A DNA stretch of 61,246 bases, filler included, from Sphacelaria rigidula (taxonomy: Eukaryota): assembly GCA_964200075.2 (NCBI GenBank). It is 7 parts of 7 records of this genome, joined end to end, with 100 filler letters (N's around TTAATTAATTAA, not from the genome) between each part and the next. Parts side by side here need not be neighbours in the genome. Positions count along the whole stretch, not along the records: positions 17,531 to 26,194 come from CAXNAA020010457.1; 6 more parts are not named here. One strand, written 5' to 3'. Below the pieces are notes generated by a model. It was given only the letters and a program-made list of their open reading frames with translations, made no database searches and was not told where the DNA came from. Both the position numbers and the translations under genes were made by a program. Shown here piece by piece: positions 5,371 to 55,244 of the stretch (the first letter of the stretch is position 1; every line of letters starts with the position of its first letter).

Positions 5371-5705
5371 TCATCGTTGTACACGCGGGTTGTGTTCGGC
5401 AACCTTGGCAAATTGTTCGAGTGCTCCGTGATCCGTATAGATCTCAAAGGGCACGTGAAACAGATATTGTCGAAGGCGCTCAATGGCCCAAGTGATTACT
5501 CCGCCTTCCCGTTCTAGCCGACTCCAATTGGCCTCGTTGGGCAGGGTAGCGCAGCTGATATAGAGGATGAGTCGGACGGAGCCATCAACCTGAGGTTGAT
5601 TCAAAACTCCTCCAAATCCGTTTGTGCTGGCGTCAGTGTGGAGTCGGAAAACGCGGAAACCATCTTGTACTGCCTCCCAATCAGGAAAGCAGAGTACCGG
5701 CTTTT
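5371..5705 (-). pseudogene. Gypsy RNase H domain
   Basis: FRLHTDAS..GFGGVL, NWSRLERE, WAIERLRQYL..PFEIYTDH motifs. Confidence 0.88.
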
Positions 5706-5814
5706 TGGTAAGCGTCTTGAGTAATTCGGATATTCTCCATTTCAGTTGTGAAGGAAAACACGGCTCCTTTCTTGAGTAACTCAGTAAGGGGGCGAATCCG
5801 TTTGGATAATTCGG

Positions 5815-6876: not shown

Positions 6877-6971
6877 AGTGGACTGACTCCGCCGGAGATG
6901 TGGCGTTTGGAGCGGCAGGTGCCGTTACGCACGACTCGAGTGGGATGTGCATCAGGGAGCAGCGGCCATTC

Positions 6972-8192: not shown

Positions 8193-8665
8193 CTGCGTCC
8201 AGTTGCGTGGATGGGGTCAGCATCGGGGCATGGCGGAGCGAAACTTGTGGGCTGCTTTCCGCAGGCAAGCTTGGCTGGTGGGTCATAGCCGAAGATATGT
8301 TGGGGCGGTTGTTAGTAGAACCGGCCGAAGGTAGGTCCGTGCGTTTTGAAAATCCCAGGGAAGGAGCTCGATCCAACTGATTGGGAATTACATGATCCGA
8401 TGTGATCACATTCAAACCAGCGACACTTGGGTCAGCTGAAGAAGGCTTGCCACTACCTGTGCGTGCGGTCGCTGAGGGAAGCCTTTCCCTCAGGGATTGG
8501 CGGTTGGTCCTCCCACACCTCAGACTTATACTCGGGACTGAAGGACCAAGTTCAAAGCCGGGTGTAGGTCTGAGTCGCGGGGTGACACAACTGTTACGCG
8601 GTGTGTGGAGGGGTGAAGACGGGGGTCGATATGAACGGCCGTCAGTTGCGCTCCTGCATAGTGCC

Positions 8666-8765
8666 NNNNNNNNNNNNNNNNNNNNNNNNNNNNNNNNNNN
8701 NNNNNNNNNTTAATTAATTAANNNNNNNNNNNNNNNNNNNNNNNNNNNNNNNNNNNNNNNNNNNN
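8666..8765. other. Artificial contig linker (also 17431-17530, 26195-26294, 34958-35057, 43721-43820, 52484-52583)
   Basis: Identical 100-nt N-TTAATTAATTAA-N spacers; flanking contigs are length-sorted (8665, 8665, 8664, 8663, 8663, 8663, 8663). Confidence 0.98.
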
Positions 8766-11224
8766 GAGAGCGATGGCCTAGCACAGGTACGTTCTCGGCC
8801 GATCGGTGGCCCAGATAAGGTACGATTGAAAAATAATTCCTAGATCAGGTATACCTGGGCGAAACTTGGCCTACAAAAGGTAAGCGGCTTCTGAAGGCGA
8901 GACGTCCGTTTTCGCGGGGCCATATCTCTCGAGTAGCATTTTTTCTTCCCGTTTTTTTTCGAGATCGGGGTGCCAATGGCACCCCCGAATGATGTGCGTG
9001 AAAAAGTCGTAGCGAAAACGGTCAAAATGACGTGTTTGGCTGTTTTCGCGTTTCTGGCCATTTTTCGTACCTTTTGGGGGGCAAAAAACGAGATGGTATA
9101 CCTTTTCTAGTCCGTTGCTCTTCATTTTTCTCGTCATCTGTTCGAGGGCGTTACGGAGAGCAAGAACTCGACACGTTATGGGAAAAGTATCCGTGATCAA
9201 CACGGTTTCAACTGTGCAGAGAACGTGCTTGCTTCAGCGCTCGACCTTTTGGGCCGTCCCGGTTTGTTCACAGAGTCGGGACGCATAAAAGGGATGATGC
9301 GGATTGCACTGGAGGTTCCTGTATTTCCGCTTTTTTGGTCCCCTAGACAACACTAACGAGGGCCATTCCCAATTCTTAGCTTGCTAGCTGTCCGCCACAC
9401 AACGAAATGAGTCTCATGGATCAACAATCAACCTGTGCGTGGTCCACACTGTATACCCGAAGCCAGACTCTACAACGAAAGCACAAAGGGCTCGCGATAG
9501 TCGATCTTCCGTGAGAGCATCATGTTCTCTGATGAAAATAAAAATGTGCCCCAGAAATTGTTCTAGCTTCTGCATTTGAACCAAGAGAGACAGTCATAAT
9601 GATACCACGGACAATGAATAGAGGAGAGAAGTTATGGAGACATTACCGACGAGGACCAACGCAGGAAGACTGGGAAACAGCCGGACAAAGCAAAGCATGC
9701 GGAATGAGCGGACTGGGGCCACTTAGACGCGAGGATAGCAGTTCACTCACCACGGCTGTGGCTGTTTTCAACACCAGGTCGCTCCCGGGCTGGATATCCA
9801 CCCAGTCGGCGCCGACGGTTCTGTTGTTAACCTCCACTTTGCTCAGGTTATGCTTAGCGACGTTCTTAACCTTGCATTCGATGCAATCGTCATCCTCATC
9901 TGTGCGTTGATGGGCAAAACAAGATGATTGCTGTCCAAGTCAGCTCAATTGCAAACCAATGATGTCCGAGTGAGGCTCATTCTGGGTTTCCGTGGTACTT
10001 CTTCATTTTCAACTCAATCGCCGGTGGGAAGGGTCGCATGAACATGTTAGTGAAGTAAAAATGTACGCGTATATATTTGCGTCATGCCACACTGTCTCGT
10101 GTGAGATAGTCGCCTGACTCCTGTTCAAACAGAAGGCAAAAGGCGACCGAATATGCCCATGGACAGGCCGACCAGTGCTGGCAGGCCGACCAGAAAATAT
10201 TATATTTTGACGTTCGAGTTGAACTGAGCGGTGTTACGTTACCAGTTTGTGTTAAAAAAAAGGGGGTAGTGAAGACTTGACGTTCGTTCAACTCACCGAC
10301 GAAAATCTCGAATTGTTTTCGAGACACGGACGAGCTTCTTATGCCTGTCATCTGGCTCCTTCCCAGGATTTGAGAGCCTAACGTCAGGAGTACTTGCCTG
10401 AGACAATCGAATAGGGGTGGAATAAAGCGGCACAAGGAATCCGGGACGGGAAGTTGTTCGAGTCAGTACAATACGAGACGGCTCTCGGGCTAGGCTTTAG
10501 AGCACCTATTGTACGCTGCAAGCACTCATGTTGGCAGTCTCTGCTCTGGAGTAGCTCTGGGGGAAATCCGTCAACCTCACACTCATTACTGACGGCGGAG
10601 CAATTCGTTGACGGCAGCTTGAAACACCCGACAGGTCTTCTCAGCTGACGCACGTGCAGACGTAACATTCTACCGTTTGCCTCGCTCATCAACCCTACAA
10701 CCGTAATGTACCTCCTGGCAACCGAAGGCAACGGCGGCGATGGGTAGAGCTTTGGGTTGCAGTTAGTGGTATACTGAGCTACAAGTGCTTGATTCCACAC
10801 GATGGTACTCCACGCATCCGTGCGGTTGTATTTTTTTTCACTTCGGATCACTTGAAGTATAGACTACGGACTGGGTCCTAACTTACAACCACATGCAGCG
10901 CCCTCTAAGATGTTTTCCGACTACACGGTGTCCTCTACCTGAACACATAACACAACGTACATTCCACTTGGTCACTGTCCAAGGCCAGAAGGTGAATTTT
11001 TGCATGTAGGTAACCTCCACGTGTTCGCCTTTTCGCTTTTCCTTGGGATCTGGCTCACCTAGCGCATACTTTGAAGTAGTTGGGTGGCGCCGACCGTTAG
11101 TCTATATGTACAAATTGATAGCAAGGCTTTATTTCCAACTGCACGTGAGCACATAGTACCGGTGATATCCGGAACAAAGCACGTTCACCTCACCTTGTAC
11201 GGTACACTTATCGGAATCACATCC

Positions 11225-12300
11225 GTCTATGCTCAGTACCCTGTACGCGCAACCACGTCTTCGTGGTAGTACATGTGCCGCCGACGCGGGGCATCGTTTT
11301 GTGATCGCCGGAGAGCCTCGGGAAGATGATGTCGACCATCGTGCGCGTTTTCGTAATATTCAGACTGACGGTGCCGGAGCCCAAGACAGAGATCATGTAC
11401 TTGCTGCCGACAGGGATGGACGAGTGCCCATCCAGGTTCAACGCCAGCGGCCACGTGTACAAGCAAACCACCGAGGTTGTATACCTCGGAGGACCTGTTT
11501 GCAACTATTTGCACGGACAGGAGGGTGGACAAGAAGGTGGCAAGTCGTCTGTCCCGAGCATGTGGACGCTACAGGTGGGAAGGGCAGTCGATGTACGACC
11601 GTTGGGAGCTCCCCCTCCGGCTCAACCTACGACTAGTCCAAGCCAAAGTGGTTGGGATCCTTCGGTACGAGGGCACAACGTGGAATATTAGAAAGGAGCA
11701 CTGCACCAAGCTCAACGGGACGCACCGCCAACTCCTGACGAGCTGCACTGGGTGGAACAAAAGGACGGACACGGACCGCCCCCTGCCCTACGCCGAAACC
11801 CCTCTCAAGCTCGACTGCACCGAGACCACCGAGACCACCGCGCGCAAACCGAGACTTCTCTTCGCGTGATTCGTTATGCGCGTGGGAGACGGCCGACTTC
11901 CAAAGCACTTTATGCTGGGAACGTTGCAGAGGGTGACTGAGTACAGAGGGAACAAGAGGGCAACCGGATGCATTGCCTAGAAGAGGGCCTCGAGTTCTCC
12001 GATATGAAAGAGAAGAACGGGGAGAGGTAGAAAACGAGCGTCGAGGAACTGGATGACTGATGAGCATGGCGGAGGAAGAGGTGGAATGGTTCATGGCGAA
12101 ATGGCACCAACAAGAACGGGAAGACCGTCAATGCGCCATTTAGAGAGGGTGGACAAAAAAGTAAACGAACGAACAAGGGACCGCGAGGTTGCGGGCGGGC
12201 CGAAAAGAGGAAACGGCTGAGGGGATAAAAGTAGAAATAATAAACAGGAAGAAGAGAGGGGGGGGCTCGCACCACTGCCATAGAAGGAACAAAGATGGAG
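11225..12300 (+). mobile_element. 5'-truncated degenerate LINE (RTE-like) RT C-terminal part plus 3' UTR
   Basis: DAG(IV)..ESLGKMM..FRLTVPEPKTEIM..VYLGG; LRYEGTTW; RLPKHFMLGTL motifs across shifted frames. Confidence 0.8.
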
Positions 12301-12894
12301 GAGGCAGAACGCATGAGATTCGTGATCGACCGACGATATCACCCGCTCCCCCACTCCGGCTTGTGTTGTCATGACTTTTTTGTTTCAGCTTTTTCTTTTT
12401 TGCACCCTTCCCCTCCTTTCTTTCCTTGTTTTCCTCCCCTTTTTTGTTCCCAGTTTCTTCGTTCACATTTGTTCTTGTTTTCGTTTCTTCTGCTTTGTTC
12501 TTTAGTTTTCCCTTTTCTGTAGACTCGTGCGTGGATCCCATTATCCTTTGGCCCTAGTCGCACCATCTTGTCTTGCTTGCCATGCCGTGACTTGTTTGGT
12601 ATGCCGACGTGTGTAGTTCCCCTATTTGACCTTTCTAGCGTCTTCTGGACCGCGTGCCATGTAGCCGACTTCGAGTCGTGCGTATACTTCTTTGTGCATG
12701 TTCTTTCCGCTGACGTCTCTAGAACCCCGCCCTGTATGGCGCCGTGTTTTCGTGTTCGTGGGCAAGGAGCCCCACATCGGGAAGTCACGGCACCAGGGCC
12801 CCCCATGTCGCCGAAGCCTCATTCGCAACAGGGGGGTCTCCAATGTGAGAGGGGGGTACCCTCTGATCGATGGATGGTGGTGATAATAGTAGTG

Positions 12895-13254
12895 TAGTAC
12901 TTTGTAAATACTACCGTACAAGTACACCGTACTTCGCAAACACAACAGTACGAGATATACCGTCATTTATAGATCGGTAGGGAGACAGCCTCGCATTACG
13001 CGGCGGTGTTATCGGTTTCGTCTGTGATTCTACCGTTCTGACTGTAGGATTCGAGGGCAGCGTATATGGTACATGCAGATGCATAAAACATGATACACAG
13101 ACTGAAGGGACAAGTCCCAGAAAATATTGCAGTAGCTGGTACACAGCGCAGCTGGTCAAGATGCATACTGACGGCTCGAACGGTTGTTAGTGCAACAGTA
13201 CAGTACAGCACCAATGTACACAGCAGGGTATAAAGTAGTATTTACAAAGCACTG
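12895..13254. mobile_element. MITE-like element with about 20-bp TIRs
   Basis: TAGTACTTTGTAAATACTAC ... GTAGTATTTACAAAGCACTG; no TSD recognised. Confidence 0.6.
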
Positions 13255-13609
13255 CACGAAAACTGCCTACCGTACAAGTAGAGGCTGTACTTTTGCAAAA
13301 ACCAGAAACGCTCTCGAATTTAAAAGACGTGGGCGTTCGCACTAAAAAAACTGACGCAACATGGGTCATGATGAAAAGGTGTGGGTGGATTCTTATTTAT
13401 TATCCAGTGATCACCGCGACTCAAGAGTCATTATCCAGCCGGAAAATTCGCTCCCCTGTGGCCACAACAAGAACAACCCACACATCAAAACTCGTCGGTT
13501 TTAGGCTGCTCACGTCGAGGCGAACCCTAGGTGATGGAAATGATCGTTTGATTCCGTATACTGGTGAAGAGACAGGAATAATGAGAATTTTGCCAATTGA
13601 TGCGGTAAT

Positions 13610-13794
13610 TTCCTCCCTCTCGACCGCTTGGGAGGGGGGGCTGGTGCCGTGACCTCCCGATGTGGGGCTCCTTGTCGTGGGTGTATTATTTATTTCTTCC
13701 TCATTGCTTCCTCGTATTCTGTCTTCTTGTGCCACGGCTTCGTGACTACGGGCTAGAAGGGCTTACGTGAAAAACTACAACAACAACAACAACA

Positions 13795-13826
<32 letters not shown>
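13610..13826 (+). mobile_element. Non-LTR element 3' end with (CAA)n(CGA)n tail
   Basis: Shares GGTGCCGTGACYTCCCGATGTGGGGCTCCTTG with the minus-strand repeat at about 12763-12794; ends in a microsatellite tail. Confidence 0.5.
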
Positions 13827-14804
13827 ATAGATCAGAGCATGACTCGCGCCATGTTTTTCATGGTTGTACATTTTTGTACTTTCGGGCAGGCTTTACTCCC
13901 GCACGAAATGAGCGCCAGATTTACGCGTTTTTGAATAAAAGAGAAGCTGAACGTTTTGCGGATCGTCAAAAACTCCATACCTGTGCCAAGATTTGGTCGA
14001 CGGCAGAACCGCACGATACTGCTGGAAAATACTTTCGCGCAGGCGGGTTTATCCTAGTGAGAAGGGTTCGGGTTTAACCAAGTTCGGCCACATCACCCCT
14101 TTTGGTGCTGGAGCCCTCAGATCGACCCTAGATGGACACCCCAGAAAATGCGCGAAAAACGGCGACTTCGCCCAAATTGAAAACGCCATATTACGGGGGT
14201 GAGGGTTTCAGAACTCCGGAATCTGGGGAAGGGGGTGTTATCGAGAGTAAGTAGGTCATATGAAAATACAGTGGAACCGATATAATCACAGGAACGCCAT
14301 ACCACTTTCTATTTGAATACGTCCTCTCCACGGCCCCGGCGCCAAAGGCGGAACGGAGAATAAAATCGTAACGTGCATCCAACATCACTTTTGGTCAGCT
14401 TCCCTTGCTGGCCGATGGTGTTGCAGCCGCGGGCTTGTCTGCGAGTGCTCGATGACAGCCCCTAGTGTAACTTCGACTGGGTGACAGGGCGATGAAAGAG
14501 AACTCATCGCGGTGTCTTGTCCTGTATTCTTCAAAGGTAACCCTCAGAAGACGCTGCATCCCACGAGACATCGCCCGTGTAACACACGGGCAAGCAATGG
14601 CTTCTAGCCAGCGCTTGTGGTGCCGACACCTGTCATCATTACCTTGCACCGCCGCATGCACCGCGGTACCAGTATCTCTTGTCGGCAGACCGCTGTACTA
14701 CAGTATACAAACTGTCATGTACATTCTATGCAGCAGACAGTACAGTACTGTACCATGTATATGTCACGTTCAAATCTGTTTTGTTCATTTGTCGCACTTT
14801 GAAC

Positions 14805-15073
14805 CCCTCCCCTTCCTCGGGACAAGTCAGTGGTTTCAAGCGACCCATCTCTTCCCTGTACATGCCTTGCAATTTGGTCTCGTGGATTGGGTTAGCACCT
14901 CTCCACCGCGTCAACTTTCGTCGAACAAACTCAGCCACTTACTTTTTGTTTACTCACGTATTCGCCCTTCCGACGGTGGAAATCAGATAATTGAAAAAAA
15001 CTCAACGCACCGGGGATAGAACCCGTTCTTTCCACACTGATGGCGACAGTCCGACCATTAGACCACGGGGGCG
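14805..15073 (-). mobile_element. tRNA-derived SINE
   Basis: Head CGCCCCCGTGGTCTAATGG (A box)...GGGTTCTATCCCC (B box); body homologous to 23393-23632 and 38410-38525. Confidence 0.8.
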
Positions 15074-17304
15074 CGGCGGCAAAACTGTTATAACACGAGC
15101 ATTTCTTTCGATGTGCGGAACTGAAGTCACCTAAATAACTCAGCGGGCGGAGCCCGCAACCCAAGGCATATATCTCACACAGAGATAAGAGTAACTCAAT
15201 GTGGATACTAAGATGCTCGATCATGGCCGAGCGTTCAAAATCGGCACCTGCCCAAAATTGAGGACATTTTCAAAATCAGGCCAAGGAGCAAAACATGGGA
15301 CATGCCTTGTTTCACTGTACTGCAGCACAAACACACTCATGCCCTCTCTCATGTGCTGTAGCTGCCACCGTACTGTGGTGTGTGAGAAATTGCAGAGACG
15401 ACTTCCGCTGGGATTGCCTGAGCTGCGATGTTGTGGTTGTGTTCGTCTCTGAATATAGTGTTGGTCGGCGTGCCGTTCTGTGTACACACTGTTGCAAACT
15501 TCATGGTGTGTTGACTGTTTCGTCGTTAGTAAAATGAACAGGGTGCTGCCCGCTGCTGCGGCACTCTGTTTAGCTGATGCTGTCGTTGTGTCACTGTGCT
15601 GTCTGTGGGTGTGTGTGTGATTGGCCGTGAGATTAGACTGCACGAATACTACGAGCGGGGCCAGCTTAAAAGCGGCCAAAAGTTGTCCACACTACAGCTT
15701 TCCCAGTTTCCCGAATGGACCCGATGTAAGCATTCACTGTGAAGTGCAGATCAACCTGGTAACACACGGCACCGCCGCTGAATGAACAGAAAAAATGTAC
15801 AACATAATACATGATCTTAACGACGGACGAAAAAATGAATATAATCTGGCGGGATTCGAACCCATCACCTCCATAATTGGAGGCTCTCATCACTTGAATT
15901 GTAAGGGTGCAGCAGCGTCACGCGAAACGTTGCACGCACGGCCCAATTCGACGACTCTTGAGCTGAGATCACACAAAGACCTTCTGCTCTCAGGGAAATG
16001 ATTCATCACGGAAGCAGCTGCAGATGATCGTTTTTTTCCTTCACTGATGACATTATCTTGTTTTTGCTGAAATTTCAAATCCCCGGAACTTCCTTTTTTT
16101 TTCTTTGCTGCTCTCGTCATATTCTGCATGTCGATCATGATAAGCTGCTGTCAAGATTTCAGCGTTCAACTCCTGATTTTACACTGTGTGTCGCCTGAGC
16201 GAGAAAACTACCCACTGTTGGCCGGCCCAGCTCGTGGGTGTTGGAATACTTTCCAAGTAGTTTCCATGTATAATGGAGCGATCTGATTGGTAGTTACCAC
16301 GTAAAACTGTCTCGCTGGTCTTTCAATCTACCGTTACGTACTGCTGCATACACATATCTTGCATGGTTGTCAGCCGAAATATTGTACCGAAACGAGGATG
16401 GGCGCTCATGAGGATTGAATATAGTAGTCCATGGTTGACAGTTTGGAATCGATGGAGTGAGGCGATAACTCCAACGCAACTCCAACCCCAGGCGGTGTAG
16501 AACCCTCGGGCAGGATGAATCCAGAGAGGATCGTGAGGAAAAGCGCGCGTTGACAGAGTTTCGAGCAAGTTGCGGGCTGGGATCCGAATTTCAGCGCCTC
16601 CGCTAAATCCTACTCGTGATTGATATATTGCAAACCAACTCTCCCCAACACCTTGCAGCAACAGCATCATACCAGTGTTGTTCCTTTCCGATATTGTGGA
16701 GGCATTGGCGTCGGAGAATTTGTACCTTTCAGTAGACGGAGTCATGTTTCGCAGTTTCGATTGTGTTGGGCTGAAGAGGGGAGGTCATCGCGGGAAGAGG
16801 GGTAGGCACTGTCAGCGTCAAGAGCTGGCCTCACGGTTGATGTGCGGAGGTGGAGAAAGGGGCATCACGCACGAGCACACATCGCAAGCGAATACTACCG
16901 AAAACAGGTCGCGTCCCGGTAGGACACGGCGAAGTTGTGCGGGGTTCTCGACATGCCGCCCCTACCCCGCGCGCACGGATCTCAAGTCATACTTTCATAC
17001 AGTATATATGTACAATACTGCTTACTCTCCGTGTACGTGGTATACCACCCTTCGCTCCGCCACATTTTACACAGCTGTCGGTGTCGCAGCTAAGTGTGCA
17101 ATTGCCCTAGGTAGCGCATGCAGGAGTGGAAGGCCGCCTCTGCCGCTACTATACCTGCCTGTATCTTGGGCAAAGCTATATGGCAACACAGCCGCTATGG
17201 CGCGCAAGACGGCTGTAACATTTCACACCGTGAAGATTTCCAGTCCGAAGTGTACTGCGCGCAGTACCCACTACGGTGTTTGCGAAGATCAAATTCAGGT
17301 CAGG

Positions 17305-17430
17305 ACTTGTGTGTTGTGTGTTGTCTCATTTATTCTGGGCGCCAGTCTCCCTTTTCGGGATATGTGGGCGCATCAGCCGGGGTCACACAGGAGGAAGGTC
17401 AACACAGGAGTTTTTTTTTCATTATTTGTT
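17305..17430 (+). repeat. Dispersed repeat (GGGGTCACACAGGAGG core); other copies at about 47095-47215 (+) and 60295-60340 (-)
   Basis: Direct sequence similarity among three contigs. Confidence 0.7.
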
Positions 17431-17596
17431 NNNNNNNNNNNNNNNNNNNNNNNNNNNNNNNNNNNNNNNNNNNNTTAATTAATTAANNNNNNNNNNNNNN
17501 NNNNNNNNNNNNNNNNNNNNNNNNNNNNNNTTTTCTTTTTTTTTTTTTTTTTTTTTTTTTTTTCTGCGCCGTGCTCCCCCCCCCCTCCCCCCCCCT

Positions 17597-17627
<31 letters not shown>

Positions 17628-18207
17628 GGAAGGGGGGCTATCGTAGAGAGTGTCTTGATTCGTACGGTACGAATCAATCCTTGTAAGGCTTCGTTTTCAG
17701 TGTTGAAACCCAGGTACGCGCAGTCCAGGCACGTGGAGTGGGCGCGAAAATTGAGTGTAGACCTTTCTGACCAGCGGTCAACTTTTTTCTTCTTCGCTAT
17801 TTTCGAGCAATCAGGCCTGAAAAATCGTGGAATTTGGTTATTCGGCGATGATTCATTCGTCCGACCCGTGAAAGGCTTCTACAAGATAAAAGCCTCACAA
17901 AAAGAAAAAAAAGAGTCCACCCCTACCGTAGCATTGCTCGGAAAATGTTTGACTATTACAGTAATAAAATAAATTAATAGAACAGTATTGTCATCACCTA
18001 TAACTTCCTGTCTCATGAGTAAGGGTACCTATGGGCAATGCGCTGTCTGGGTTCAACAGTGCTAGTGAGGATAGTATAGTCGGGTTCGTTAGAAAGATAA
18101 AACGAAGATGAAGCTACAGAAGGGAAAAAAAAAACCCAAGGTTCTACAATTTTACACTTAGATGGGTTAAAATATACCCTATTTTGGGAATATTTTTGAG
18201 AATGTTT

Positions 18208-19823
18208 CACACCTTGGACAAAACAATATGTCTCCAATATATATTGGTCGATCATATTGGAATTTTGCGATATATAACCGGTGTAATATATTGGTATCCT
18301 TAGACTGCACATGTATTGCGCGCTCAATATATATATTGATGTCGTGGGACTCCATAGATATTGTCCGTCCAATATATACTGGTACTATTGGGTTGAACAC
18401 ATATTGTCCCATCAATATATATATTGGGGCAGCGTAGGCGACAGCATATTGCACGACCAATATATATTAGGGTCGCATTGATGAACACATATTGACCGGT
18501 CAATATATGTTGGGTCTGCGTGGCTGACAATGTATTGGCCGGTCAATATATATTAGATGTTGTCAGTATCGTGTACGCTGTAGGAGAGATACAGACGCGA
18601 TGGATGCCGGAGCCCGTGCAGATTGGGAAAAGCTTTGAAGGGAGCCGCAGAAGTTCGCGTGCATTACTCCGGAAAGTTGTCGAATGCATTCGATATATAT
18701 ATATATATATATACTGGTTAGAAAATATGGCGACAGAAGAGGCGACCCGGTATATATGCCTCCTGATACCTATCTGGCCAACGGTGCGGGGCCGCCCATC
18801 CCCTTTCCAGCATGTAATATAAATATCTTGGCTAAACATCACCACGACAGAAAACGCGGGTCGACATGCGCCTTTTGGTACCCCTGTGGTCACCGGGGCT
18901 GTGTTGCTTATACCCTGGACAATACAATATGTTCCAATTTGATACCAATACTTTGTATTGGAGCCAGCGCAAATATTGTCCTTTCAATATATATTGTGTT
19001 GAGATGTCCTCGGAGATATTGGAGCAACAACATATATTGCTCGTGTCATGATCATGAAGTGATGTATGTCAATATATATATTGGACATGCCGTTGCTCCG
19101 AGAATAAAACATTCAATATATATTGTGCATGCCGGCCGTATATGTATTGAAGTGTCAATATATATTGAGTCGAGGCGATGTGTAGGATATTGTTACCATA
19201 ATACATATTGAACGCAAACCATGCGCACGCTGATCGGATAGCCATTGTGCAGCTAAAATATATTGAACACGCTTGCGGAGGAATACATTGAGCATTTTTG
19301 GCATGTAAAATACGTCTTCGAATGGCGCCCGCGAACAAAGAACTGCCCACCATACTATTTCCAATACACTTTCCAAAATATATGTTGAAAATCAATATAT
19401 TTTGCTACATCAACATGTATTGTGACCGTCGGTTCCCTCGTGTATTGTCCGCCCAATATATATTGGACGCATTGACGCACGACATATTGGGGCGGCAGTA
19501 TATATTGGCGCTTCGGGTGTCGAGTATATTGAATCGTCAATATATTTTGACCTCGGGTGGCCGCAAATATATTACTCGATAAATATATATTGGTGCCTTC
19601 TCGCACCAACATATTACTCGGCCAATATATATTGAGGTGGCGCGTGTCGTGATATGTTGTTCGGTCGATACATATTGCATGTCGCGAGCCTCGATATCTT
19701 GATGGCACAATATATATTGACCCCCTGTCGTGTCATATTGCTCGCCCAATATGTTTTGACCACCCGACGCGTCGATATATTGAGCGGGCAATATATATTA
19801 CGTATTGTCTTGTCCAGGGTGTG
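18208..19823. mobile_element. 1616-bp non-autonomous TIR DNA transposon (CAC...GTG termini, 8-bp TSD) carrying a periodic repeat-spacer array
   Basis: TIRs CACACCTTGGACAAAACAATATG (18208-18230) and reverse complement CACACCCTGGACAAGACAATACG (19801-19823), 20/23 identical; TSD GAATGTTT (18200-07) / GAATGTTC (19824-31); internal second left-end copy near 18911. Confidence 0.85.
18235..19800 (+). repeat. Array of about 21 or more units of ATATTG-N6-CAATATATATTG-N18/19, 42-43-bp period, variable spacers, in three blocks (18313-18555, 18973-19210, 19442-19800)
   Basis: 12-mer starts at e.g. 19454, 19496, 19538, 19581, 19623, 19666, 19708, 19747, 19789. Confidence 0.9.
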
Positions 19824-20260
19824 GAATGTTCTGAGGATTCTCGAACATTATCAAAAGCGTCCGGATTTAGTACCTTACCCGCCCACTACACCATTCTAGC
19901 GATGGACTCGCCCCCCAGCACACCTCCACCTCGCAAACGGGGCGCCGAGATATCGATGGTGACCGCTACGCAATGGCGACAATGGTTCTCGACACTTTTT
20001 TTCGTAGGAAAGGCGTGGAATACGGCCATGTTGGGACCGACTGAATATTTTCGGCAGTTCGGCCGCATCGTTCAAGCACCGGCCGAGAAAAAACAAACAA
20101 ACTATTTTTTACTCGGAAAACACCGAAGACTTCAACAAAAAAATCGAGAAACAGATCGGACACGGTTGAGGGCCCGTACAAATTTAGGTACCCTAACTTA
20201 TGAGACAAAGGAAGTATACCGGCATACGAAAGCCCTAGGGAATGAAGACCTACACAATAC

Positions 20261-20389
20261 CTTCCCGTCTTTCTCGTGTTTCCCTCCCCCTCCTCTTGTT
20301 GTGGTCGTTGTGGCTGCTTCGAACAGACGAAGATACGTCTGCACCATGGTTGAGGCGGTCTCCGCATCTTCACCCGCTTTCAGGTACAC
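20261..20389 (-). CDS. CEBPZ: CEBPZ/NOC1(MAK21)-like ribosome biogenesis protein, third visible internal exon
   Basis: AG|VYLKAGEDAETASTMVQTYLRLFEAA...DGK|GT, 129 nt, phase 0; fits the segment following FLNQ in NOC1/CEBPZ. Confidence 0.7.
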
Positions 20390-20730
20390 CTTCGACGTCG
20401 TGATCATTCGGTACAATAGCCGACGGGACGGGACGGGACGGGGGAGTGGGGAATAATTCGGTACCCATCGCTCTAGAATTATACCATACTCTGGACAACA
20501 GCTTACATTGCCAAAAAGTGTACCGGGCACAGTCAGTATGGAATATTTTGTCTGTAGTAATGGACGCAATAGTTGATACTATACGCAGTATATTGTTTGA
20601 CAACGTAATCTTCAGTCATTATGCATGGTGTAGAATTTACACACACACACACACACACTGCTTTCATTTTTTCTCGATTTTTTGTCACACTCCCGCGAGG
20701 CAAATATGCTGCGGTTGCAAAGGTATAAGC

Positions 20731-20951
20731 CAGGGGTTTACACGTAACACGTGCCACAACGTTACACGTTACTTCACGTTTTGGCCGAAACGTAACGTGA
20801 ACTTTTTGTTTTTTGTGCCGAACGAAACGTGAACGTGAGATTAAGTTTTCAAATGACACGTTAACGTAACGTTAACTTTTTCTGACGTGCCAAACGAAAC
20901 GAAACGTGTACGTGAACGTGTGACGTGTAACATATAACGTGTAGTCCCCTG
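20731..20951. mobile_element. 221-bp hAT-type MITE packed with ACGT motifs
   Basis: TIRs CAGGGGTTTACACGT / ACGTGTAGTCCCCTG; perfect 8-bp TSD GTATAAGC (20723-30, 20952-59). Confidence 0.92.
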
Positions 20952-22055
20952 GTATAAGCCCATCTCTCCTCCGAGATATGTAGGTGACCGTTTTCGCACA
21001 AGCGCGTACACCAATTACTTTGGCGAAACAAATCTGACTCTGTACGCAAATTGGGGGCGCTCAGATCAGCATTTGCCTATTATGGACCTCAACATGGCCC
21101 AGATCGGGATCCTTCCTCCATTTTCGCAAGAAATTCCTCAATCTGTGCGCTACAAGTTTGAGGCGCCCTCATTCTGTACGCGTCAGATTGGGGTAGAGTT
21201 GAGGTCTCTCAAATCTGTAGGGAGGCGACGGATGCACCGTGACGTACGGTGATGAAGGCGAGAGGTGTTTCATCTTTTCACAGATTAGACTAATCATGAT
21301 CCGTCTGAAAATCATTTCCTCTCAGTGTACTGATCCACATCATGATTTATTGTACATCATTCGACCCCCCCTTCTCCATCTTTGCTGCCTGCACAGCGCC
21401 GCACGCCGAGCACGCCAAGTACCGCAAAGGTTGCTCTTTGGCTTCTCTCACTCCGCGGTCAAAATATTTCATGTTTTTGGACCAACGGATCCGACCGAGA
21501 GTCTTCTTTGATTCGTTATTTCAGACGGATCATGATCTTTCCGACGTACGATCTTTTTGAAACCGCAGAAGGAGGCAGTCACGTGACATCACAGACCGTG
21601 ACAACCCATACCAGCTGTTGGAGCAGCTTCGCAGTACAGGTAGCGAGCACCACGGGGTTTGACAAGCGGATGAGAAGTGTTGACGCCGTACCCTGCAGCG
21701 ATGGGGAACATACTCCACTGCTCTGCTGTGTGTGTGTGTCACCGTAACGCACGGTGCTATACTATCCAACTTTCTGTGGTCGTTGTTACTTGTACGGTGT
21801 GATGTACGGCAATGCACTCCTATTTCACTGTTCTCGCAATGCTGACTGTACCGTCATGTATTACGTCCCCGACGAGACTTTTGCAACGATACGTAGACGT
21901 AGGACATATTTTGGATTGACTTGTTGATTTTTCCTCCGTGATATGACAAGTTTCACGTGCCATCCCACCCGGTAAGACAGGTGAACAAGCGCCTACAGTA
22001 AAAAAAGTGTATATTTTTTTGTTGCATGTCCATCCCTCCTCCCCCCCCCTCTCCG

Positions 22056-22146
22056 AATTAGAAGTAGGAACGGTGCTCCGTCTCGAAAGGGATGCGTGGT
22101 CAGTGGCCAAACGACTAAAGTAAGCAACAAATGAATACGCCCCCCT
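22056..22146 (+). mobile_element. Short 3' end of the C-tailed LINE family
   Basis: GGTGCTCCGTCTCGAAAGGGATGCGTGGTC...AAATGAATACG followed by a C run; C-rich on both sides. Confidence 0.85.
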
Positions 22147-22469
22147 CCCCTCCTTCGAGCGTTGATGTCGGTTGGAAACGACGCTGAAAGACAAGCCACT
22201 CACTGCGTAAGCTAGGTGACCACATTACCGTTCTTCTCCTAGATTTGCGTTTTTTGTTGCGGTAACGATGATGGTCGACTTTTTGTAGCTCAAATAATAC
22301 GGGGTGGGACAACCTCAATTCCGCGCAAACGGGGATAATCATACCACGCGGCGTTTGAATGGTGAGACACACATGACGTAGCAGAGTGACCCGTGGCTGT
22401 CCCTGGAAGCGGCAATACCAGAAAATCAAGCACCTCATTGAAGGGTGTCATTCACATGCAACGGACTTA

Positions 22470-22622
22470 AGACGCTTCGGGCCGAAAACCTTGGCAGGAT
22501 GCAGATCACCACTTCATGCGACTCGCCGAACATATCACGGCGCTTCCCGCTCGGTGATCGACTGCGAGCCTGGTCCGGCGAAACACCTGGCGTGCTTCGT
22601 CCCGGCTTTGTAGGGATGCGAT
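22470..22622 (+). repeat. Dispersed repeat (CATGCGACTCGCCG...GTCCCGGCTTTGTAGGG); copies at 51426-51585, 52426-52470, 51043-51090 and about 50660-50735 (-)
   Basis: Direct sequence similarity among copies. Confidence 0.75.
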
Positions 22623-22721
22623 GTCAATGGCCTTACGAATAACTATGGCATGCATGATCATGAGTACACCCTCCCCCGATGAAAACACATCTGCATCGTC
22701 TAATGGACGCGGCGAAAAAAT

Positions 22722-23133
22722 GAGACTGCGATTTCGGGTGAGGGACTTAGACCTGCCAGAAAGAAGAAAGAGATTCACCAGTGGTCGAGAGTAGGGGGAA
22801 GCAGATGCACAGAGTCGCCCCTGTGGCAAAAGCAATAGAGAGCAGAAGTCATTTAGTGGCAGAATGTGAACTATACGAGGAGGAACGGGACGTGCTAGAG
22901 GGTGGCATGCGGGACGTGAACGAAGGCGGCATGAAATCGTTTGATGCATTAGACAGTAGGGAGAAAACGGTAGAATACTACGAGATAGATGGTGGGCACA
23001 GACGGCGAAACAGGACGGGGATGAGATATGTAATTAGGAGTAGGAACGGTGCTCCGTCTCGAAAGGGATGCGTGGTCAATGGTCAAACGAGGAAGGCAAG
23101 CAGCAAATGAGTACCCCCCCCTCCCGCCCCCCC
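22722..23133 (+). mobile_element. 5'-truncated C-tailed LINE copy, antisense within a CEBPZ-like intron
   Basis: Matches the 3' end of the LINE at 55300-59449; ends ATGAGTA-C run. Confidence 0.85.
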
Positions 23134-23148
23134 GGGATAGATGCACAC

Positions 23149-23286
23149 CTGGTTGAGGAATATGACCCCGGCGTAAACCGCCTTGGGCTGCAGACCGGGC
23201 CTGTGAAGGTACTGCTGTACCTCCCGGACCACAACGCCCTTCATAGCGGGGTGCTTGGACAAGAGGGTCTGGAGGAGATGAATCAC
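23149..23286 (-). CDS. CEBPZ: CEBPZ/NOC1(MAK21)-like protein, second visible internal exon
   Basis: CAG|VIHLLQTLLSKHPAMKGVVVREVQQYLHRPGLQPKAVYAGVIFLNQ|GT, 138 nt; matches the conserved LL.KHP.MK.VV..EV....R.......Y....FLNQ block. Confidence 0.9.
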
Positions 23287-23392
23287 CTGATGAAGTATGT
23301 GTTGAGGTGAGGTGGAGTGAAGGAGTGGGGGGGGCAGGGGGAATTATTTGATTTGTTGATCGATGGATGGAACTAATTGATTAGTTAGTGGA

Positions 23393-23632
23393 CGCCCCGG
23401 TGGTGTAATGGTCCGAATTTCGCCATTAGGGTGGAAAGATCGGGATTCGATTCCCGATGCTTTGGGTTTTCTCTTCGTGATGTATACTTTCCACCATGGA
23501 AAGCGTGAGAACGTGAGTAAACAAAATAGTTGACTGGATTTGTGTGACGTGAGTTGACGCGGTGCGGGAGTACTGACCCAATCCGCGAGACCAAAATGTA
23601 AGGCACGTACCGGGGGAGAGATGGGTTGAAAG
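23393..23632 (+). mobile_element. tRNA-derived SINE (intronic)
   Basis: A box TGGTGTAATGG, B box GATTCGATTCC; body shared with 14805-15073. Confidence 0.8.
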
Positions 23633-23858
23633 TGTGAGGGAATAAAAAAAATGAAGTTTTCCATCCTCGTAATATGACTTTTTCTTTTTTGAAAGAAACT
23701 TTTCCGGGAATGCTATCACTTGATTGGAGTGTTAGCACCAATATTTGAATCTTTAGGTGGGTTTTCTTGGAGAAGGTGTTTCAAACCCTGTGTCTGCTGT
23801 TCTTCGGGAGGGGAGGGGGGCGGCGGCGTGACGGGCGATGGGCGAACAACTCTCTTAC

Positions 23859-23951
23859 CTTGGAGCTGATCTTCCGATCTGGATCGCCCAGTTTGTTCAC
23901 CAGAAGACCCAGCAGACGGCCTTCTCCCTCCGGCTTTGCCTCTAGCAGGTC
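23859..23951 (-). CDS. CEBPZ: CEBPZ/NOC1(MAK21)-like protein, first visible internal exon
   Basis: AG|DLLEAKPEGEGRLLGLLVNKLGDPDRKISSK|GTAAG, 93 nt; contains the conserved KPE.E..LL...VNKLGDP motif and joins in phase with the next exon. Confidence 0.92.
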
Positions 23952-24101
23952 CTTTGTCGAAAGTTACGGGGCAAAGACGGGACGCATGAACAAGGGCAGG
24001 AACAAAATTTGACGTAACATTGATATATCGGTTGACAGTTTTGATTATTCAGCTTTCACTGAGCGAATCCGCTGCGAAATCGAGCTGCGGTGAAAAGATA
24101 T

Positions 24102-24469
24102 CACACTCTGGATAATGACAATATGTGGCCAATAGTTGCAAAAGACGAAATATATACTGCGCATAAGTATAGGCCTAGAGCGATGCTACGGGGGCACAAT
24201 TTTCTTCTGAAGGTAGAATTGTAAAAGAGCCCTCCATCTCATCCAAAATACGACTTATGAAATACTCCGGAGTGCGTGAGAGTACGCCAGGATTACTATT
24301 CCAATGTCCTAGGGATTTTCCCGAATGAATTTGCAAACGGAGATGCTTTGCCCCATATTCTCGTGAATGCAGAATCGTTAGGAGTCCCTGAACCAGACAA
24401 GATTTTGCACAAAAAGCGCATCCCTACCTGTTGAAACTGTTGATCATCTTGTTATTGTCCAGGGGAGTG
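24102..24469. mobile_element. Short degenerate member of the CACAC-terminus TIR family, with a nested GAG-MITE
   Basis: Left CACACTCTGGATAATGACAATATG, right TTATTGTCCAGGGGAGTG; flanks AAAGATAT / CAAGATGT (6/8). Confidence 0.55.
24178..24428. mobile_element. MITE of about 250 bp, GAG(Y)NATGCTACG terminus family
   Basis: Reverse-complement homolog of 36795-37050 and same-strand homolog of 34870-34957. Confidence 0.75.
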
Positions 24470-25390
24470 CAAGATGTAGACGTGCCCGACGAAAAATGTA
24501 CGGGAAACCACTCTCTAATTAGAATGCTCACGAAATCAGGAGGGAAAATGAAGAAAAAATGTTTTCATCAATATTATTGATATCATGAAATTGCACCGGA
24601 GAACGCGAATTCATATCTTGAATAGTATCCATATCGCTGATGAGCATCAACAAGGTTGCTTTATCATAGGGCTCCCCCTACTCGGATAAAATCACCTTGG
24701 TATAATCCAGCGTGTGGTCTGCTACAATACATGGTTTTCAGGGATAACATAACATTATTATTTAATCATCATCTGTTATTGATATAATGAATATACACCG
24801 GTTAGAGCGAATTGATATTAAAATTAGTGTTAATATTGTTAATACAGTATACTGCTACTAAGGGTTGTTTAGATCCCCTACTCGAATAAATCACCTTTTG
24901 TAAATCCAACGTCTTGTCTGCTACATGCATGGTGCTAAGGGATTACGGTATGGTATGCTCGAGTGACGTCCCAAGAAAACAGCTTACGATATGCTACGAG
25001 TAAGAAGAAAATATCCACCAACAGTCACACGCTAAACAATAGATTACATTAGTAGCATGTTTATACTCCGTACGGTATAAAATCTACTGTTACAGTAGAC
25101 GCAACAGTCGATACTGTACTGTGTACACAGTACACTTCTCCTTGACAGTGCAATCCACCGTCATTATCCACCATGTGCAAACAGTTCGGCGCTGTGAAGT
25201 CATTCCACGTACCTTTCATATACTTCTGTTACGAAACGTTTCACGTCTTAACAAACTTCCACACGTTTTTCTAGTATGAATACTACTTCGCAAAGAATTG
25301 GTGCGGTCCCACAAGACAGACCCCGAAGAGCCCAACAGTACTAAAAGCCATGACTATATTCTTCAAGATTGTGTTCTCAGGGGTATACCG

Positions 25391-25670
25391 GACACTTTCT
25401 ACGATGGGCTCCCCCTCCCCTCCCCGCGCGCGCAAAAAAAAAAGTGGCTGGTTTGGGGGGGGGGGCAAAATCTACACGTATATCGGAATGAAAAGAGCCG
25501 AGCACAACGAGCAGCTGGGAATTCTCACCCACGCTTGGGTTCGTTTTCGCCAATGCCGCTAATATGAGGCGCTTCATGCACAGCCTGAAACCAAACATCA
25601 GGCGCTGTATGACCATTTCTTCGTGATGCTTTTGGGCTGGTTTTGGGGGTGGGCTATCGTAGAAAGTGTC
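25391..25670. mobile_element. 280-bp TIR element
   Basis: GACACTTTCTACGAT / ATCGTAGAAAGTGTC, a 15-bp perfect IR; a similar right end recurs at about 17633-17654. Confidence 0.65.
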
Positions 25671-26294
25671 AAGGGCCCAACAGTACACAAAGCCATGACT
25701 ATATTTTGCGAGATACGTGTTCTACAGGGTATAACGGGTGAAATTCGGGTACAGTATTCCCACAAGAAGTAAAAGAGGCACTTCCTCGGAGGATACTCTT
25801 CCGGACTATACCGGGGTGGTCGGAGCAGGGCTCGACACCCTGTCGAGCCATACCAGGATGTTCGATACATATATTGGCCAATCCCTCGTCCTGAAAACTC
25901 TGTTTTTGAATTTGATTGCTGCTCCAAACTGTCGGACAGGCGTGACTGAGGCACGGCGTCAAAACATCGTCCGCCGTGATCGACCTCATACGACCACGCA
26001 CCCCTTCGTTACCGGCTATGTTACGCCCAATTGTGCAAGGGTCGGACATATCAATGATTCGTGTGGAAATTACTTGGTTTTAGTGTAATTGATCCAAATC
26101 GTACGAATCAATTCCTAGGCTTTGTTTTCAGCGTTGGAACCCAGGTGCATGCAGCCCAGACACGTGGAATGGCGCAAAAGTTGCGTGGATACCCNNNNNN
26201 NNNNNNNNNNNNNNNNNNNNNNNNNNNNNNNNNNNNNNTTAATTAATTAANNNNNNNNNNNNNNNNNNNNNNNNNNNNNNNNNNNNNNNNNNNN

Positions 26295-28745
26295 GGGAGC
26301 CTGGGGGGGGGGGGGCTGGTTCGTTGAGGAAGCCGAACTTGAGATTGTTGGCGCCCTGACGGCGTACACGTCCGAGTCGGGGTAGTGGGGGGGAGGAAGG
26401 GATCGCCTGTTAAGAAGGTCGACCTAGAGATATCTCGTCCTCTCGGTGCTATACAGAGACAGGAAGTACGGTGAAGAAAGAGGAGAACTTACTTGTGACG
26501 GGAGGAAAGCTTCGGATTTGCTTTTGGCCTGCGTGGGATACTTCGCGTATTACGCATGGTATGCCCATTGACAGGCGAAATTCTCTCAGAAGCGGCTGTA
26601 AGGGAGCTGAGATTTGTTGTCGCCCTGCGTAATGTACGTATGCGAGGGCAGGTGGGAAAGGGGGAGGGCTGATGGAGATGCGGAAGTTGTGGATGGTCGT
26701 CGCCCTCGATGAGATACTACCTGTCCATGTGTTGCGGCAGGTGGAAACGACGTATGCGGATGGGAAAAGGGGAAGGAAGGGCTTGCGTGTTGAGGAAGTC
26801 ACGCGTGAGATTTCCCGTCGCCTCGGTAGTGTACGCGTGGAAGTGGAGACGGGGGTGGGGAAGGGAGGGGGCTTGATCGTGAATAGGGAGTCGTCGTTGA
26901 AGTTTGTCGTGGCGTGGTTGGCATACGCATGTGAGGGAGGGCGGGGAGAGAGGAGGGTGTGCTCGTAGCGGAAGTCAAGCTTCCGATTTTCTTTTGGCCC
27001 GCGTGGGATACTCCCGTGTATTACGTATGGTATGCTCCTTGACGGGCGGAAGTCACCAAGAAGGGGGCAGTGAGGAAGTTGAGATTCGATGTCGCCCTGG
27101 GTAGTGTAGGCATGAGAGAGCAGGTGGGAAAGGGAGAGGTCTATTCGATGGAGAAGTCGAAGTTGCGGCTGGTCGTCGCCCTCGAGGATATACTACCTGT
27201 GGTATATGTTGCGGCCGGTGGAAGTGGCGTATGGGGCTGGGGAAGAGGAAGAAGGGCTTGCATGTTGGATACGTCAAGGTTTCAGATTTGTTGTCGCCCT
27301 GGGTGGTATACTCCGTGTGTCAGATGTTGTATGCGTGGTGACAGGCGAGATATGTATCGGGGGCAGGGGTTCGAAGGCCGCGGGGTGGGAGGGCTGGTCG
27401 TTGGCGTTGAGACGGGTGGGGGGAAGGGCTGGTCTGTGGAGGAAGTCAAGCTCGGGATTTCTGGTCGCGAAGTTTGTTGTGACGTGGTTGATATACGTAT
27501 GTGAGGGAGGGCGGAGAGACTGGAGAGTGTGCATGTAGCGGAAGTAAAGGTTCGGATTTGCTTTTGGCCTGCGTAGGATACTCCGTGTATCACGTATGGT
27601 ATACCCTTTGACAGGCGGAGTTTCCTCAGAAATGGACAGTGAGGGAGTCGAGATTTGTCGTCGCCCTGTGTAGTTAGTGTACGCATGAGATGGCAGGTGG
27701 GAAAGGGAGAGGGCTGGTTGATGATGAAGTCGAAGATGCGGATGGTCGTCGCCCTCGATGGGAATACTATATATGTCTCGAAGCAGACGGAAATGACGTA
27801 TGCGGATGGGGGAAGGGGAAGGAAGGGCTTGCGTGTTGAGGGAGTCACGCGTGAGGTTTCTCGTTGCCTCGGTGGTGTACCCGTAGAAGTGGAGACGCGC
27901 GCGGGGAAGGGAGAGGACTTGATTGTGAAGAGGGAGCCGACGTTGAAGTTTGTCGTGGCGTGGTTGGCATACGCATGTGAGAAAGGGCGGGGAGATGGGA
28001 GATTGTGCTTGTAGTGGAAATCAAACTTCGGATTTGCTTTTGACCTGCTTGGGATACTCGATGAATCACGTTTGGTGTACCCCTTGACAGGCGGGATTCG
28101 CCCAGAAAGAGGTAGTGGTGCTGTTGAGATTTGATGTTGCCATGGGTAGTGCAGGCATGAGATGGCAGGTGGGAAAGGGACAGGTCTGGTGAATGGAGAA
28201 GTCGAGGTTGCAAGTGGTCGTCACCATCGATGGGATAGTACCTGTGGTATGTGTTGCCGCCGGCGGAAATGACGTATGAGTCTGGGGAAGGGAAATATGG
28301 GTTGGCTTCTTCAAGAATGCGAGGTTGGGATTTGTTGTCGCCCTGGGTGGTATACTCCGTGGGTCAAGATGTTGTATCCGTGGTGGCAGGCGACATTTGC
28401 ATCGGGGAGGGCGGTCGGACGGCCCGCGGAGTGGAAGGGCTGGTCGTTGGCGTCAAGGCGGGTGGGGGGGTCGGCTGACCTGTTGAGGGAGTCAACCTCG
28501 CGAGGTTTCTCGTTGACTCGGTGATACACGAGTTGAGGTGGAGACGGGGGCGGGAAGGGAGGAGACTTGATCGTGAATACGGAGTCGACGTTGGAGGTTG
28601 TTGTGTCGTGGTTGCAATACGCACGTGAGGGAGGGCGGAGAGACAGAAGAGCGTGCTTCTAGCGAAAGTCAAGCTTAGGATTTACTTATGGCGTGCGTGG
28701 GGTACTCCGTGTATCACGCATGGTATGCTCTTTGACAGGCGGAAT
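26295..28745. repeat. G/purine-rich complex tandem repeat with higher-order structure
   Basis: TTCGGATTTGCTTTTGGCCTGCGTGGGATACTCC-like block recurs at about 26510, 26980, 27550, 28027 and 28674; internal 80-120-bp submonomers around GTCGCCCT. Confidence 0.9.
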
Positions 28746-28748
28746 TCG

Positions 28749-29186
28749 TGTCGTGGTCGAGTCTCAGGGTGGCGTATAAACCTCGTGGGACATAGGCTGG
28801 GGGTGGTGAAACACCAGCGGCCAGCCTAACCGTTACTGCAGGCAAGCAGTTGTACTGCACCAGAGACTCACCGAAGAGTTCGATTCAACCAGCACTGCAT
28901 ACATCATGCACAACACAGGCTTACTTTCACGAGCAGAAGAGGTACTCTTGACTTGCTTGCAAGCGAGGTGTCTCCAAGTGGTGGCCGATAGTTTTGTCAT
29001 TAGGCTCAGCTACTAGTTAGCTACAACTGAAGTTGCTAGATGATGGAAGTTGTGAGGGCGAGGGGCTCCGGTGAAGGACGCCCAATCGGAATACAACACC
29101 AACATGCGAATGGAATAAGACCTACTGCACTTGCCACGCGTACTGCAAAACGCCTACTACACATACAGTCGATATCCGCCGTAACA
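28749..29186 (-). repeat. 3' LTR of a minus-strand LTR retrotransposon
   Basis: TGTCGTGG...CCGTAACA termini; adjacent polypurine tract GGGAGGGGGA on the minus strand (29187-29196). Confidence 0.75.
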
Positions 29187-34957: not shown

Positions 34958-35063
34958 NNNNNNNNNNNNNNNNNNNNNNNNNNNNNNNNNNNNNNNNNNN
35001 NTTAATTAATTAANNNNNNNNNNNNNNNNNNNNNNNNNNNNNNNNNNNNNNNNNNNNTCCAAT

Positions 35064-39535: not shown

Positions 39536-39796
39536 ACTAAAATATATGGGGGAAAAGTTGCTCTAGGGCCAATCTCGTGGGTTCGAGACCCGCCGCGAGC
39601 ATTATTTTTTTTCCCGCCTTTTTTCCTTTTATTTTTGGTTACTCGCTACCCTTTTGCGCCTTGCTGCGGGCGTTCCGAAGCTTTTTTTTTTTAATTCGAT
39701 CTCAGTCAAAAGGTATGGAGCGACAACCAAAATCGGGTCCTTGAAAATTATCACTTTATAGTCTTCGACGATTCTTTCGAACAAAACGTATAAAGG

Positions 39797-55210: not shown

Positions 55211-55244
<34 letters not shown>

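Follow-up and report, generated by a model that had tools for sequence, protein, structure and literature searches.

Motifs repeated near the ends of DNA transposons have been described in several systems, and we compare with these the 1.6-kb element that lies at positions 18208-19823 of a 61,246-nt stretch of DNA from Sphacelaria rigidula (assembly GCA_964200075.2), the whole of which is hereafter called the window. In Ac, multiple AAACGG hexamers lie in the terminal 200 bp and are bound cooperatively by the transposase, and the non-autonomous derivatives of the Ac/Ds system have only the ends in common (PMC3260210). In the hAT element Hermes, BED domains bind the subterminal repeats and a palindromic pair of these is bound cooperatively, the phasing of the sites being critical and the two ends asymmetric (PMC10368747). 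The Lemi1 proteins bind cooperatively both the terminal inverted repeats, hereafter abbreviated as TIRs, and the subterminal motifs of Emigrant, a miniature inverted-repeat transposable element; the motif of Emigrant equals the inner half of its TIR, and the same has been noted for Sleeping Beauty (PMC1636448). MtPH-A6-4 of Medicago, a PIF/Harbinger element, contains from 2 to 35 imperfect subterminal repeats of 60 bp, each with a triplicated short motif; these repeats sometimes fill the element and are tied genome-wide to that transposon family (PMC2213677). A superficially similar layout is found in TIGR arrays, in which two alternating repeats of 8-12 nt and spacers of about 9 nt form units of 36 nt beside a Tas gene with a Nop domain, the hosts being prokaryotes or viruses of these, and in CRISPR arrays, the repeats of which are 25-36 nt long (PMC12045711).

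The segment 18208-19823 is one decayed copy, 1616 bp long, of a non-coding and probably non-autonomous class II transposon of the TIR cut-and-paste type. The three arrays of a short motif that it carries are probably subterminal sites for binding of the transposase, on the pattern known from Ac/Ds, Hermes, Emigrant and MtPH-A6-4 of Medicago.

Ends, units and family of the element

The TIRs are 23 nt long, the sequence CACACCTTGGACAAAACAATATG at 18208-18230 sharing 20 of 23 letters with the right end (19801-19823) read in reverse complement; a pattern search of the window recovered the left TIR with 0 mismatches, for a chance expectation of 0.01. The flanking 8-mers, GAATGTTT on the left and GAATGTTC on the right, agree at seven of eight positions, as read at one insertion only. 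In the inner part of both TIRs, at TIR positions 17-22, lies the half-site from which the arrays are built, with the form CAATAT on the left and CAATAC on the right. The element and its immediate surroundings are divided as follows.

18200-18207, no strand: left copy of the target-site duplication (GAATGTTT), by direct reading; 7/8 identical to 19824-19831
18208-18230, plus strand: left TIR, by pattern search, 0 mismatches
18223-18556, plus strand: array A, about 8 units with a mean period of 43.8 bp, by pattern search and register
18557-18908, no strand: internal segment 1, outside the repeats, with no coding signal; (AT)10 at 18693-18713
18909-18931, plus strand: third, internal TIR-like copy, oriented as the left TIR, with 3 mismatches to the 21-nt pattern
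18973-19210, plus strand: array B, about 6 units with a mean period of 42.8 bp
19211-19398, no strand: internal segment 2, outside the repeats, where two degenerate palindromes lie (19254, 19376)
19399-19800, plus strand: array C, 10 units with a mean period of 42.0 bp, abutting the right TIR
19801-19823, minus strand: right TIR, in which the inner half-site reads CAATAC and 19823 is the last position of the element
19824-19831, no strand: right copy of the target-site duplication (GAATGTTC)
17999-20218, no strand: outer host repeat in which the element is nested, about 600 bp long when the insert is discounted and bounded by inverted ends of about 34 nt

Array A includes an 86-bp higher-order repeat of two units (18394-18556), and array B, which comes after a TIR-like copy that is identical to either TIR at 19 of 23 positions, has lost the upstream half-site in two units. 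The three blocks jointly occupy 974 of 1616 bp, or about 60% of the element, with the two unique segments between them.

The unit pattern ATATTG-N6-CAATATATATTG, searched with up to 3 mismatches, has 27 matches in the 61-kb window, all of them within 18223-19800, as compared with an expectation of 0.03 and a maximum of 1 per shuffle in 100 shuffles. Of these matches 21 are on the plus strand, while the six on the minus strand have 2-3 mismatches and overlap plus-strand units because the site is nearly palindromic. Similarly, when up to 2 mismatches are allowed, the window contains 34 occurrences of the 12-nt palindrome CAATATATATTG; 30 of them lie within 18235-19800 and the four outside the element have 2 mismatches each. 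The composite unit, which recurs every 42-45 bp, can be written as ATATTG-nnCGnn-CAATAT directly followed by ATATTG and then by 18-19 bp of GC-rich filler. It thus contains three half-sites of 6 bp, arranged as a pair of overlapping dyads, namely ATATTG-nnCGnn-CAATAT and CAATAT joined to ATATTG.

Motif and filler differ sharply in conservation when 20 units are aligned in register and the information is computed for each column. The 18 motif columns carry 1.0-1.85 bits, with the consensus letter at 334 of 360 positions (93%), while columns 1, 2, 5 and 6 of the short spacer carry only 0.05-0.22 bits. The two central columns of the latter are semi-conserved, with C in 13 of 20 units (0.80 bits) and G in 12 of 20 (0.87 bits), so that the short spacer is better written nnCGnn than treated as unconstrained. 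Sixteen long spacers are complete, with 60% GC and a mean pairwise identity of 0.30 versus 0.26 in a null of within-spacer shuffles (z 3.7-3.8; the observed value was reached in 4 of 2000 and 1 of 2000 shuffles). These long spacers are close to random yet retain signs of common ancestry.

Tandem Repeats Finder reports no 42-bp array in the element, but only a period of 86 bp at 18394-18556 (1.9 copies, 78%), indicating that the units are less than about 70% alike over their full length; an ordinary satellite or minisatellite, with copies alike from end to end, thus fails as a description. The survival of the AT-rich motif is not explained by mutational bias either, since the window shows no shortage of CpG (observed/expected 1.0) and the copies of the family differ at A/T positions about as often as at G/C positions. 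No further copy was recovered in the window, as blastn against its remainder matched only an AT run.

These results support several claims of an earlier description, here called the sequence-only reading, which had reported about 21 units of one polarity, 23-bp TIRs with an 8-bp duplication and a transposon as carrier. The array that it described resolves into three blocks. Its fixed period of 42 bp, equated with four helical turns, holds for array C and fails for arrays A and B, while its view that the spacers differ freely goes too far, in view of the central CG in the short ones and of the weak similarity that the long ones retain.

The transposon status is further documented by contigs from public sequencing runs, which were mapped at 85% identity or more to the 2.7-kb stretch 17700-20400. 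This stretch collected 10,403 contigs in run X1 and 10,108 in run X3, the latter run coming from a separate study and being labelled 'algae metagenome'. In run X1, the summed contig depth over the full bins of the element is 75,578-240,392, versus 74.7 in the two final bins (20248-20400); such sums are not copy numbers and are read only as 'very abundant', and the element family is indeed very abundant. Internal segment 1 has the same level of summed depth as the arrays. Contigs that follow the element precisely up to 19823 and then pass into dissimilar sequence number 40 in X1, 44 in X3 and 2 in X10, with flank agreement past this position of 0.40, 0.41 and 0.58, respectively; position 19823 therefore looks like a transposon terminus common to many loci. 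Moreover, in one contig of X1 and one of X3 a joint from 18201 to 19860 (side 37) has, in place of the insert, 39 letters among which GAATGTTC is present once, and another joint from 18207 to 19847 likewise skips the insert. The former joint represents a paralogue of the host repeat in which the site is unoccupied, not an empty allele, and supports the 8-bp duplication.

The duplicated 8-mer reads GAA-NN-TTC, a dyad, and the low-agreement consensus of the flanks behind 19823 in other copies starts with AAAAATTC in X1 and X3 and with AAACAATC in X10; together these features hint at a target preference. By analogy with Ac and Hermes, a duplication of 8 bp would fit the hAT superfamily. P and some Mutator-like elements also give duplications of about this length, and none of the features of hAT transposases (BED finger, DDE, hAT dimerisation domain) is present among the window open reading frames (ORFs) scanned with Pfam.

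Comparison of family copies bears directly on the nature of the spacers. In run X10, which represents a second organism, eight contigs tile 18224-19823 with 13-26 differences per 157-379 aligned letters, or about 87-94% identity, each spanning several units, with ends at 19823. Of 355 differences between the present copy and the family, the 40 that were listed were examined, and 36 of these 40 fall within the element. Among these 36, five are in motif columns and 31 in the short spacer, the filler or unique DNA. At the motif positions 18379, 18509 and 19698, 98% of the depth has the motif consensus where the present copy is mutated; of the remaining two listed, 19017 is polymorphic and the other lies in a degenerate unit. 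Among the 31 listed differences outside the motif, 16 have a family letter share of at least 0.9, and a share of this size at many spacer positions means that the spacer sequence is fixed in the family. Since the series of spacers is common to other copies and to a second organism, it has been passed on by inheritance and does not stem from acquisition. The sequence-only reading held that constraint would be refuted if motif and spacer had diverged equally among copies; this test is invalid, because copies once inserted decay neutrally whatever the role of the motif in transposition.

Possible function of the arrays

The element has two of the traits of subterminal repeats, namely a short motif that is repeated near both ends and present also in the TIRs, and a motif with 93% consensus set against near-random filler. 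The phased protein-binding array that had been ranked first from the sequence is thus favoured by the evidence. We infer from it that the arrays are bound by protein, that the binder is a transposase and that binding is cooperative. The transposase of a putative autonomous partner would bind the arrays in cis as subterminal sites, and cooperative occupation of the dyads by dimers or multimers would extend over 330-400 bp at either end. The arrays might in this way mark the true ends and aid their pairing. They would also let a non-coding element compete for transposase, many sites having possibly helped its multiplication, and such competition fits the abundance of the family. Selection would then keep the motif and its approximate spacing while the filler drifts.

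The coding content was surveyed with Pfam on 218 ORFs, of which 121 have at least 110 aa and cover the whole window, while 97 have 55-109 aa and cover 8800-26200, excluding those with a start in the nested repeats (about 18000-20250). In none of these 218 ORFs did the scan detect a transposase, Nop, Cas, recombinase or CBF/CEBPZ domain, and the 97 shorter ones gave nothing at the curated cut-off. The ORFs within the element, 18546-18983 and 18639-19208, match no Pfam family, in agreement with the earlier statement that no effector ORF is visible. Rfam has no match within the element either. Run X6, only guessed to be RNA, has 340 contigs on the mapped stretch and is uninformative on expression either way. 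Searches beyond the window were equally negative: the TIR pattern found 19 loci in metagenome contigs, none of them with a unit or palindrome and hence chance matches, and the unit pattern found six loci in viral contigs, with one match each, GC of 0.18-0.33 and no array, again by chance. A full-text search with the 12-nt palindrome as a text string found no paper.

Several observations weigh against transposase binding as the role of the arrays. No transposase is present among the 121 longer and 97 shorter ORFs scanned in the window, and the left terminus is supported by joints only, with no loose end among those listed. Arrays A to C all have the same sense instead of being mirrored at the two ends, and array B is internal, though it comes after the internal TIR-like copy. 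The period drifts between blocks, from 43.8 to 42.8 and 42.0 bp, and some members of the family have no additional AT at 18415 and 19072, so that strict helical phasing is not maintained. Furthermore, Hermes elements with mutated deep subterminal sites kept about 70% of their activity (PMC10368747). Deep sites thus being largely dispensable in Hermes, many of the sites distant from the tips need not function here.

Among other explanations, the arrays could be a functionless internal minisatellite, grown by tandem duplication and abortive gap repair, in which slippage or recombination at the AT-rich palindrome has kept the motif. The 86-bp duplication of two units speaks for this kind of growth, the residual similarity of the spacers points to units of common ancestry, and the single sense of all arrays is what tandem growth predicts; expansion of transposon tandem repeats by gap repair has been described for MtPH-A6-4 (PMC2213677). 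Neutral decay that brought the filler to 0.30 identity should not, however, have spared the 18 motif columns, which stand at 93% consensus, the near-equal frequency of A/T and G/C changes among copies leaves mutational bias without explanatory power, and the half-site belongs to both TIRs; we therefore regard a minisatellite as unlikely, while taking it seriously. A bolder extension of the binding hypothesis starts from the regularity of the units and their pitch of about four helical turns, with 6-10 units per block, which could be the template for an extended and ordered protein-DNA filament; we give this only a small chance. Such a filament may be built from transposase or from a domesticated or host relative of it, and may be required for end pairing or silencing. 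If it existed, more units would let a non-coding element out-compete its autonomous partner, there would be very many phased dyad sites genome-wide, and the family would offer a natural model of how the dosage and phasing of binding sites drive the success of non-autonomous transposons. Slightly less credit still goes to a platform of phased sites that the family would have spread for a protein of the host, with chromatin proteins, transcription factors and domesticated transposases as candidates. This would produce the same pattern of constraint on motif and filler, would suit the dyad layout, as expected of a dimeric DNA-binding protein, and would mean very many sites per genome, given the abundance of the family. 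The link between motif and TIR and the position of arrays beside the ends nevertheless point to the transposition machinery, and the present copy is decaying from the motif at three positions.

The remaining alternatives were also raised by the sequence-only reading and have lost most of their ground. Sites for a tyrosine or serine recombinase, with ATATTG-N6-CAATAT as arms around a crossover core, are suggested by layout only, that is by short inverted arms round a 6-bp core with a frequent central CG. Site-specific recombinase sites have inverted arms, a core that is identical between partner sites and a recombinase gene nearby. Here the arms have only 6 bp, the cores differ among units, which would block recombination between units, the window ORFs scanned include no recombinase family, and TIRs with an 8-bp duplication are typical of cut-and-paste insertion by DDE enzymes; this explanation is accordingly very improbable. 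Hardly credible at all is an array of guide RNAs, processed into RNAs of about 42 nt in analogy with CRISPR or TIGR systems. The alternation of conserved and variable segments resembles such systems superficially, and the RNA of array C folds with an energy below that of shuffled sequences (z -3.75), which is unremarkable because any run of inverted repeats folds in this manner. By contrast, the same spacer series is inherited by other copies and by the second organism, the outcome that the sequence-only reading had itself named as a refutation of guides; the conserved parts have 6 and 12 nt and the variable ones 6 and 18-19 nt; neither a Nop or Cas family among the window ORFs scanned nor an Rfam match in the element is found; and the host is a eukaryote with long terminal repeat (LTR) retroelements. 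Single units, folded as single-stranded DNA, give only marginal hairpins (11 units, 0 to -3.5 kcal/mol), which also speaks against guides. Recognition of these hairpins by their structure was considered separately and rejected, their energies being too weak.

With transposase-binding arrays as the favoured reading, the significance of the element lies mainly in annotation, as it represents a transposon family that is very abundant and occurs in two organisms or more, in which a layout of repeats and spacers would be the structure of transposon ends and not an RNA-guided system. Should the cognate transposase be identified, the contrast between conserved half-sites and random filler would offer a ready map of the probable binding code and its spacing rules, and in so abundant a family copy number could be compared with the number of units.

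The host repeat and the rest of the window

The element lies inside another repeat, formed by 17999-18207 and 19832-20218, and not evidently in an intron of a CEBPZ-like gene as had been proposed, since no CBF/CEBPZ domain is found in the 218 ORFs, among which short exons may escape. The inverted pair of this host repeat, 18009-18031 and 20185-20207, is 91% identical, and 37 contigs of run X3 run on unlike from 20218. Each of its ends starts with TA (TATA-), for which a TA target duplication is possible. A further very abundant repeat is found at 17700-17972, with a summed contig depth up to 149,501 in run X1 and many contigs breaking at 17702 and 17741; a 62-nt stretch of it recurs, 79% alike, at 26133-26193. 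At 17569-17633, poly-C faces poly-G in a 27-nt hairpin (85%) that adjoins a run of N and a run of 33 T, and this hairpin (17574-17631) has only microRNA-like matches below threshold in Rfam.

Pfam matches elsewhere in the window are limited to reverse transcriptase, RNase H and integrase zinc-finger domains at 802-1332 (plus strand) and 4002-6555 (minus strand), as well as a copia-type gag fragment at 40929-41348. Fragments of Ty3/gypsy-type LTR retroelements extend over 802-1332 (plus) and 2917-8709 (minus). Strong strand asymmetry is seen at 26000-29000 and 55000-59000 (GC skew 0.31-0.45), the latter region having also an AT skew of about 0.34-0.36 and the former long overlapping minus-strand frames without Pfam families. 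A tandem duplication of 364 bp (2.0 copies, 88%) occupies 38814-39536. Six paired runs of 44 N, at 8666-8765, 17431-17530, 26195-26294, 34958-35057, 43721-43820 and 52484-52583, recur every 8,763-8,765 bases or so and look like a masking or assembly artefact, not biology.

Comparison with known systems

CRISPR arrays have near-identical direct repeats, locus-specific spacers and adjacent cas genes. The present arrays share with them, and with TIGR arrays, the alternation of short conserved segments with variable ones, but the element is multi-copy and mobile, its host is eukaryotic and its spacers are not locus-specific. A CRISPR array is rejected on its conserved parts of 6 and 12 nt, on spacers common to other copies and to a second organism and on the absence of Cas among the 218 ORFs; a TIGR array is rejected on the unit of 42-45 bp, with conserved parts of 6 and 12 nt and variable parts of 6 and 18-19 nt, and on the absence of Nop among the same ORFs.

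Closer parallels are found among transposons. Rehavkus, related to Mutator, is likewise an element with TIRs and has a minisatellite before its 3' TIR, but it gives a 9-bp duplication, has been described from arthropods and annelids only, and is autonomous, with a PHD-finger transposase (PMC6446971). MtPH-A6-4 resembles the present element in having imperfect tandem repeats built on a repeated short motif, and differs from it in its 3-bp duplication, its 60-bp unit and the motif itself; where it has arrays at both ends, these are in opposite orientation, whereas all the arrays described here have one sense. Emigrant, with its pogo-like Lemi1, is also a non-coding element with a subterminal motif that matches the inner TIR, although it has two subterminal motifs per end as compared with 6-10 units here, and belongs to a different superfamily. 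Pogo-like elements duplicate TA, against 8 bp in the present case.

Two hAT elements complete the comparison. Hermes has a short motif repeated at both ends, one occurrence of which is inside a TIR (PMC10368747), but its sites have 4 bp and uneven spacing, with 14-17 per end, while the half-sites of our element have 6 bp and stand in a strict unit, their binding being predicted. Ac/Ds is alike in its short TIRs, its 8-bp duplication and a 6-bp motif present many times in the terminal few hundred bp. It differs in that the half-sites are here ordered in a regular unit of 42-45 bp with three half-sites, and in that the arrays, one of them internal, fill about 60% of the element. Compared with these known systems, the element of Sphacelaria is unusual only in degree, namely in the regularity of its units, in their number and in the abundance of its family.

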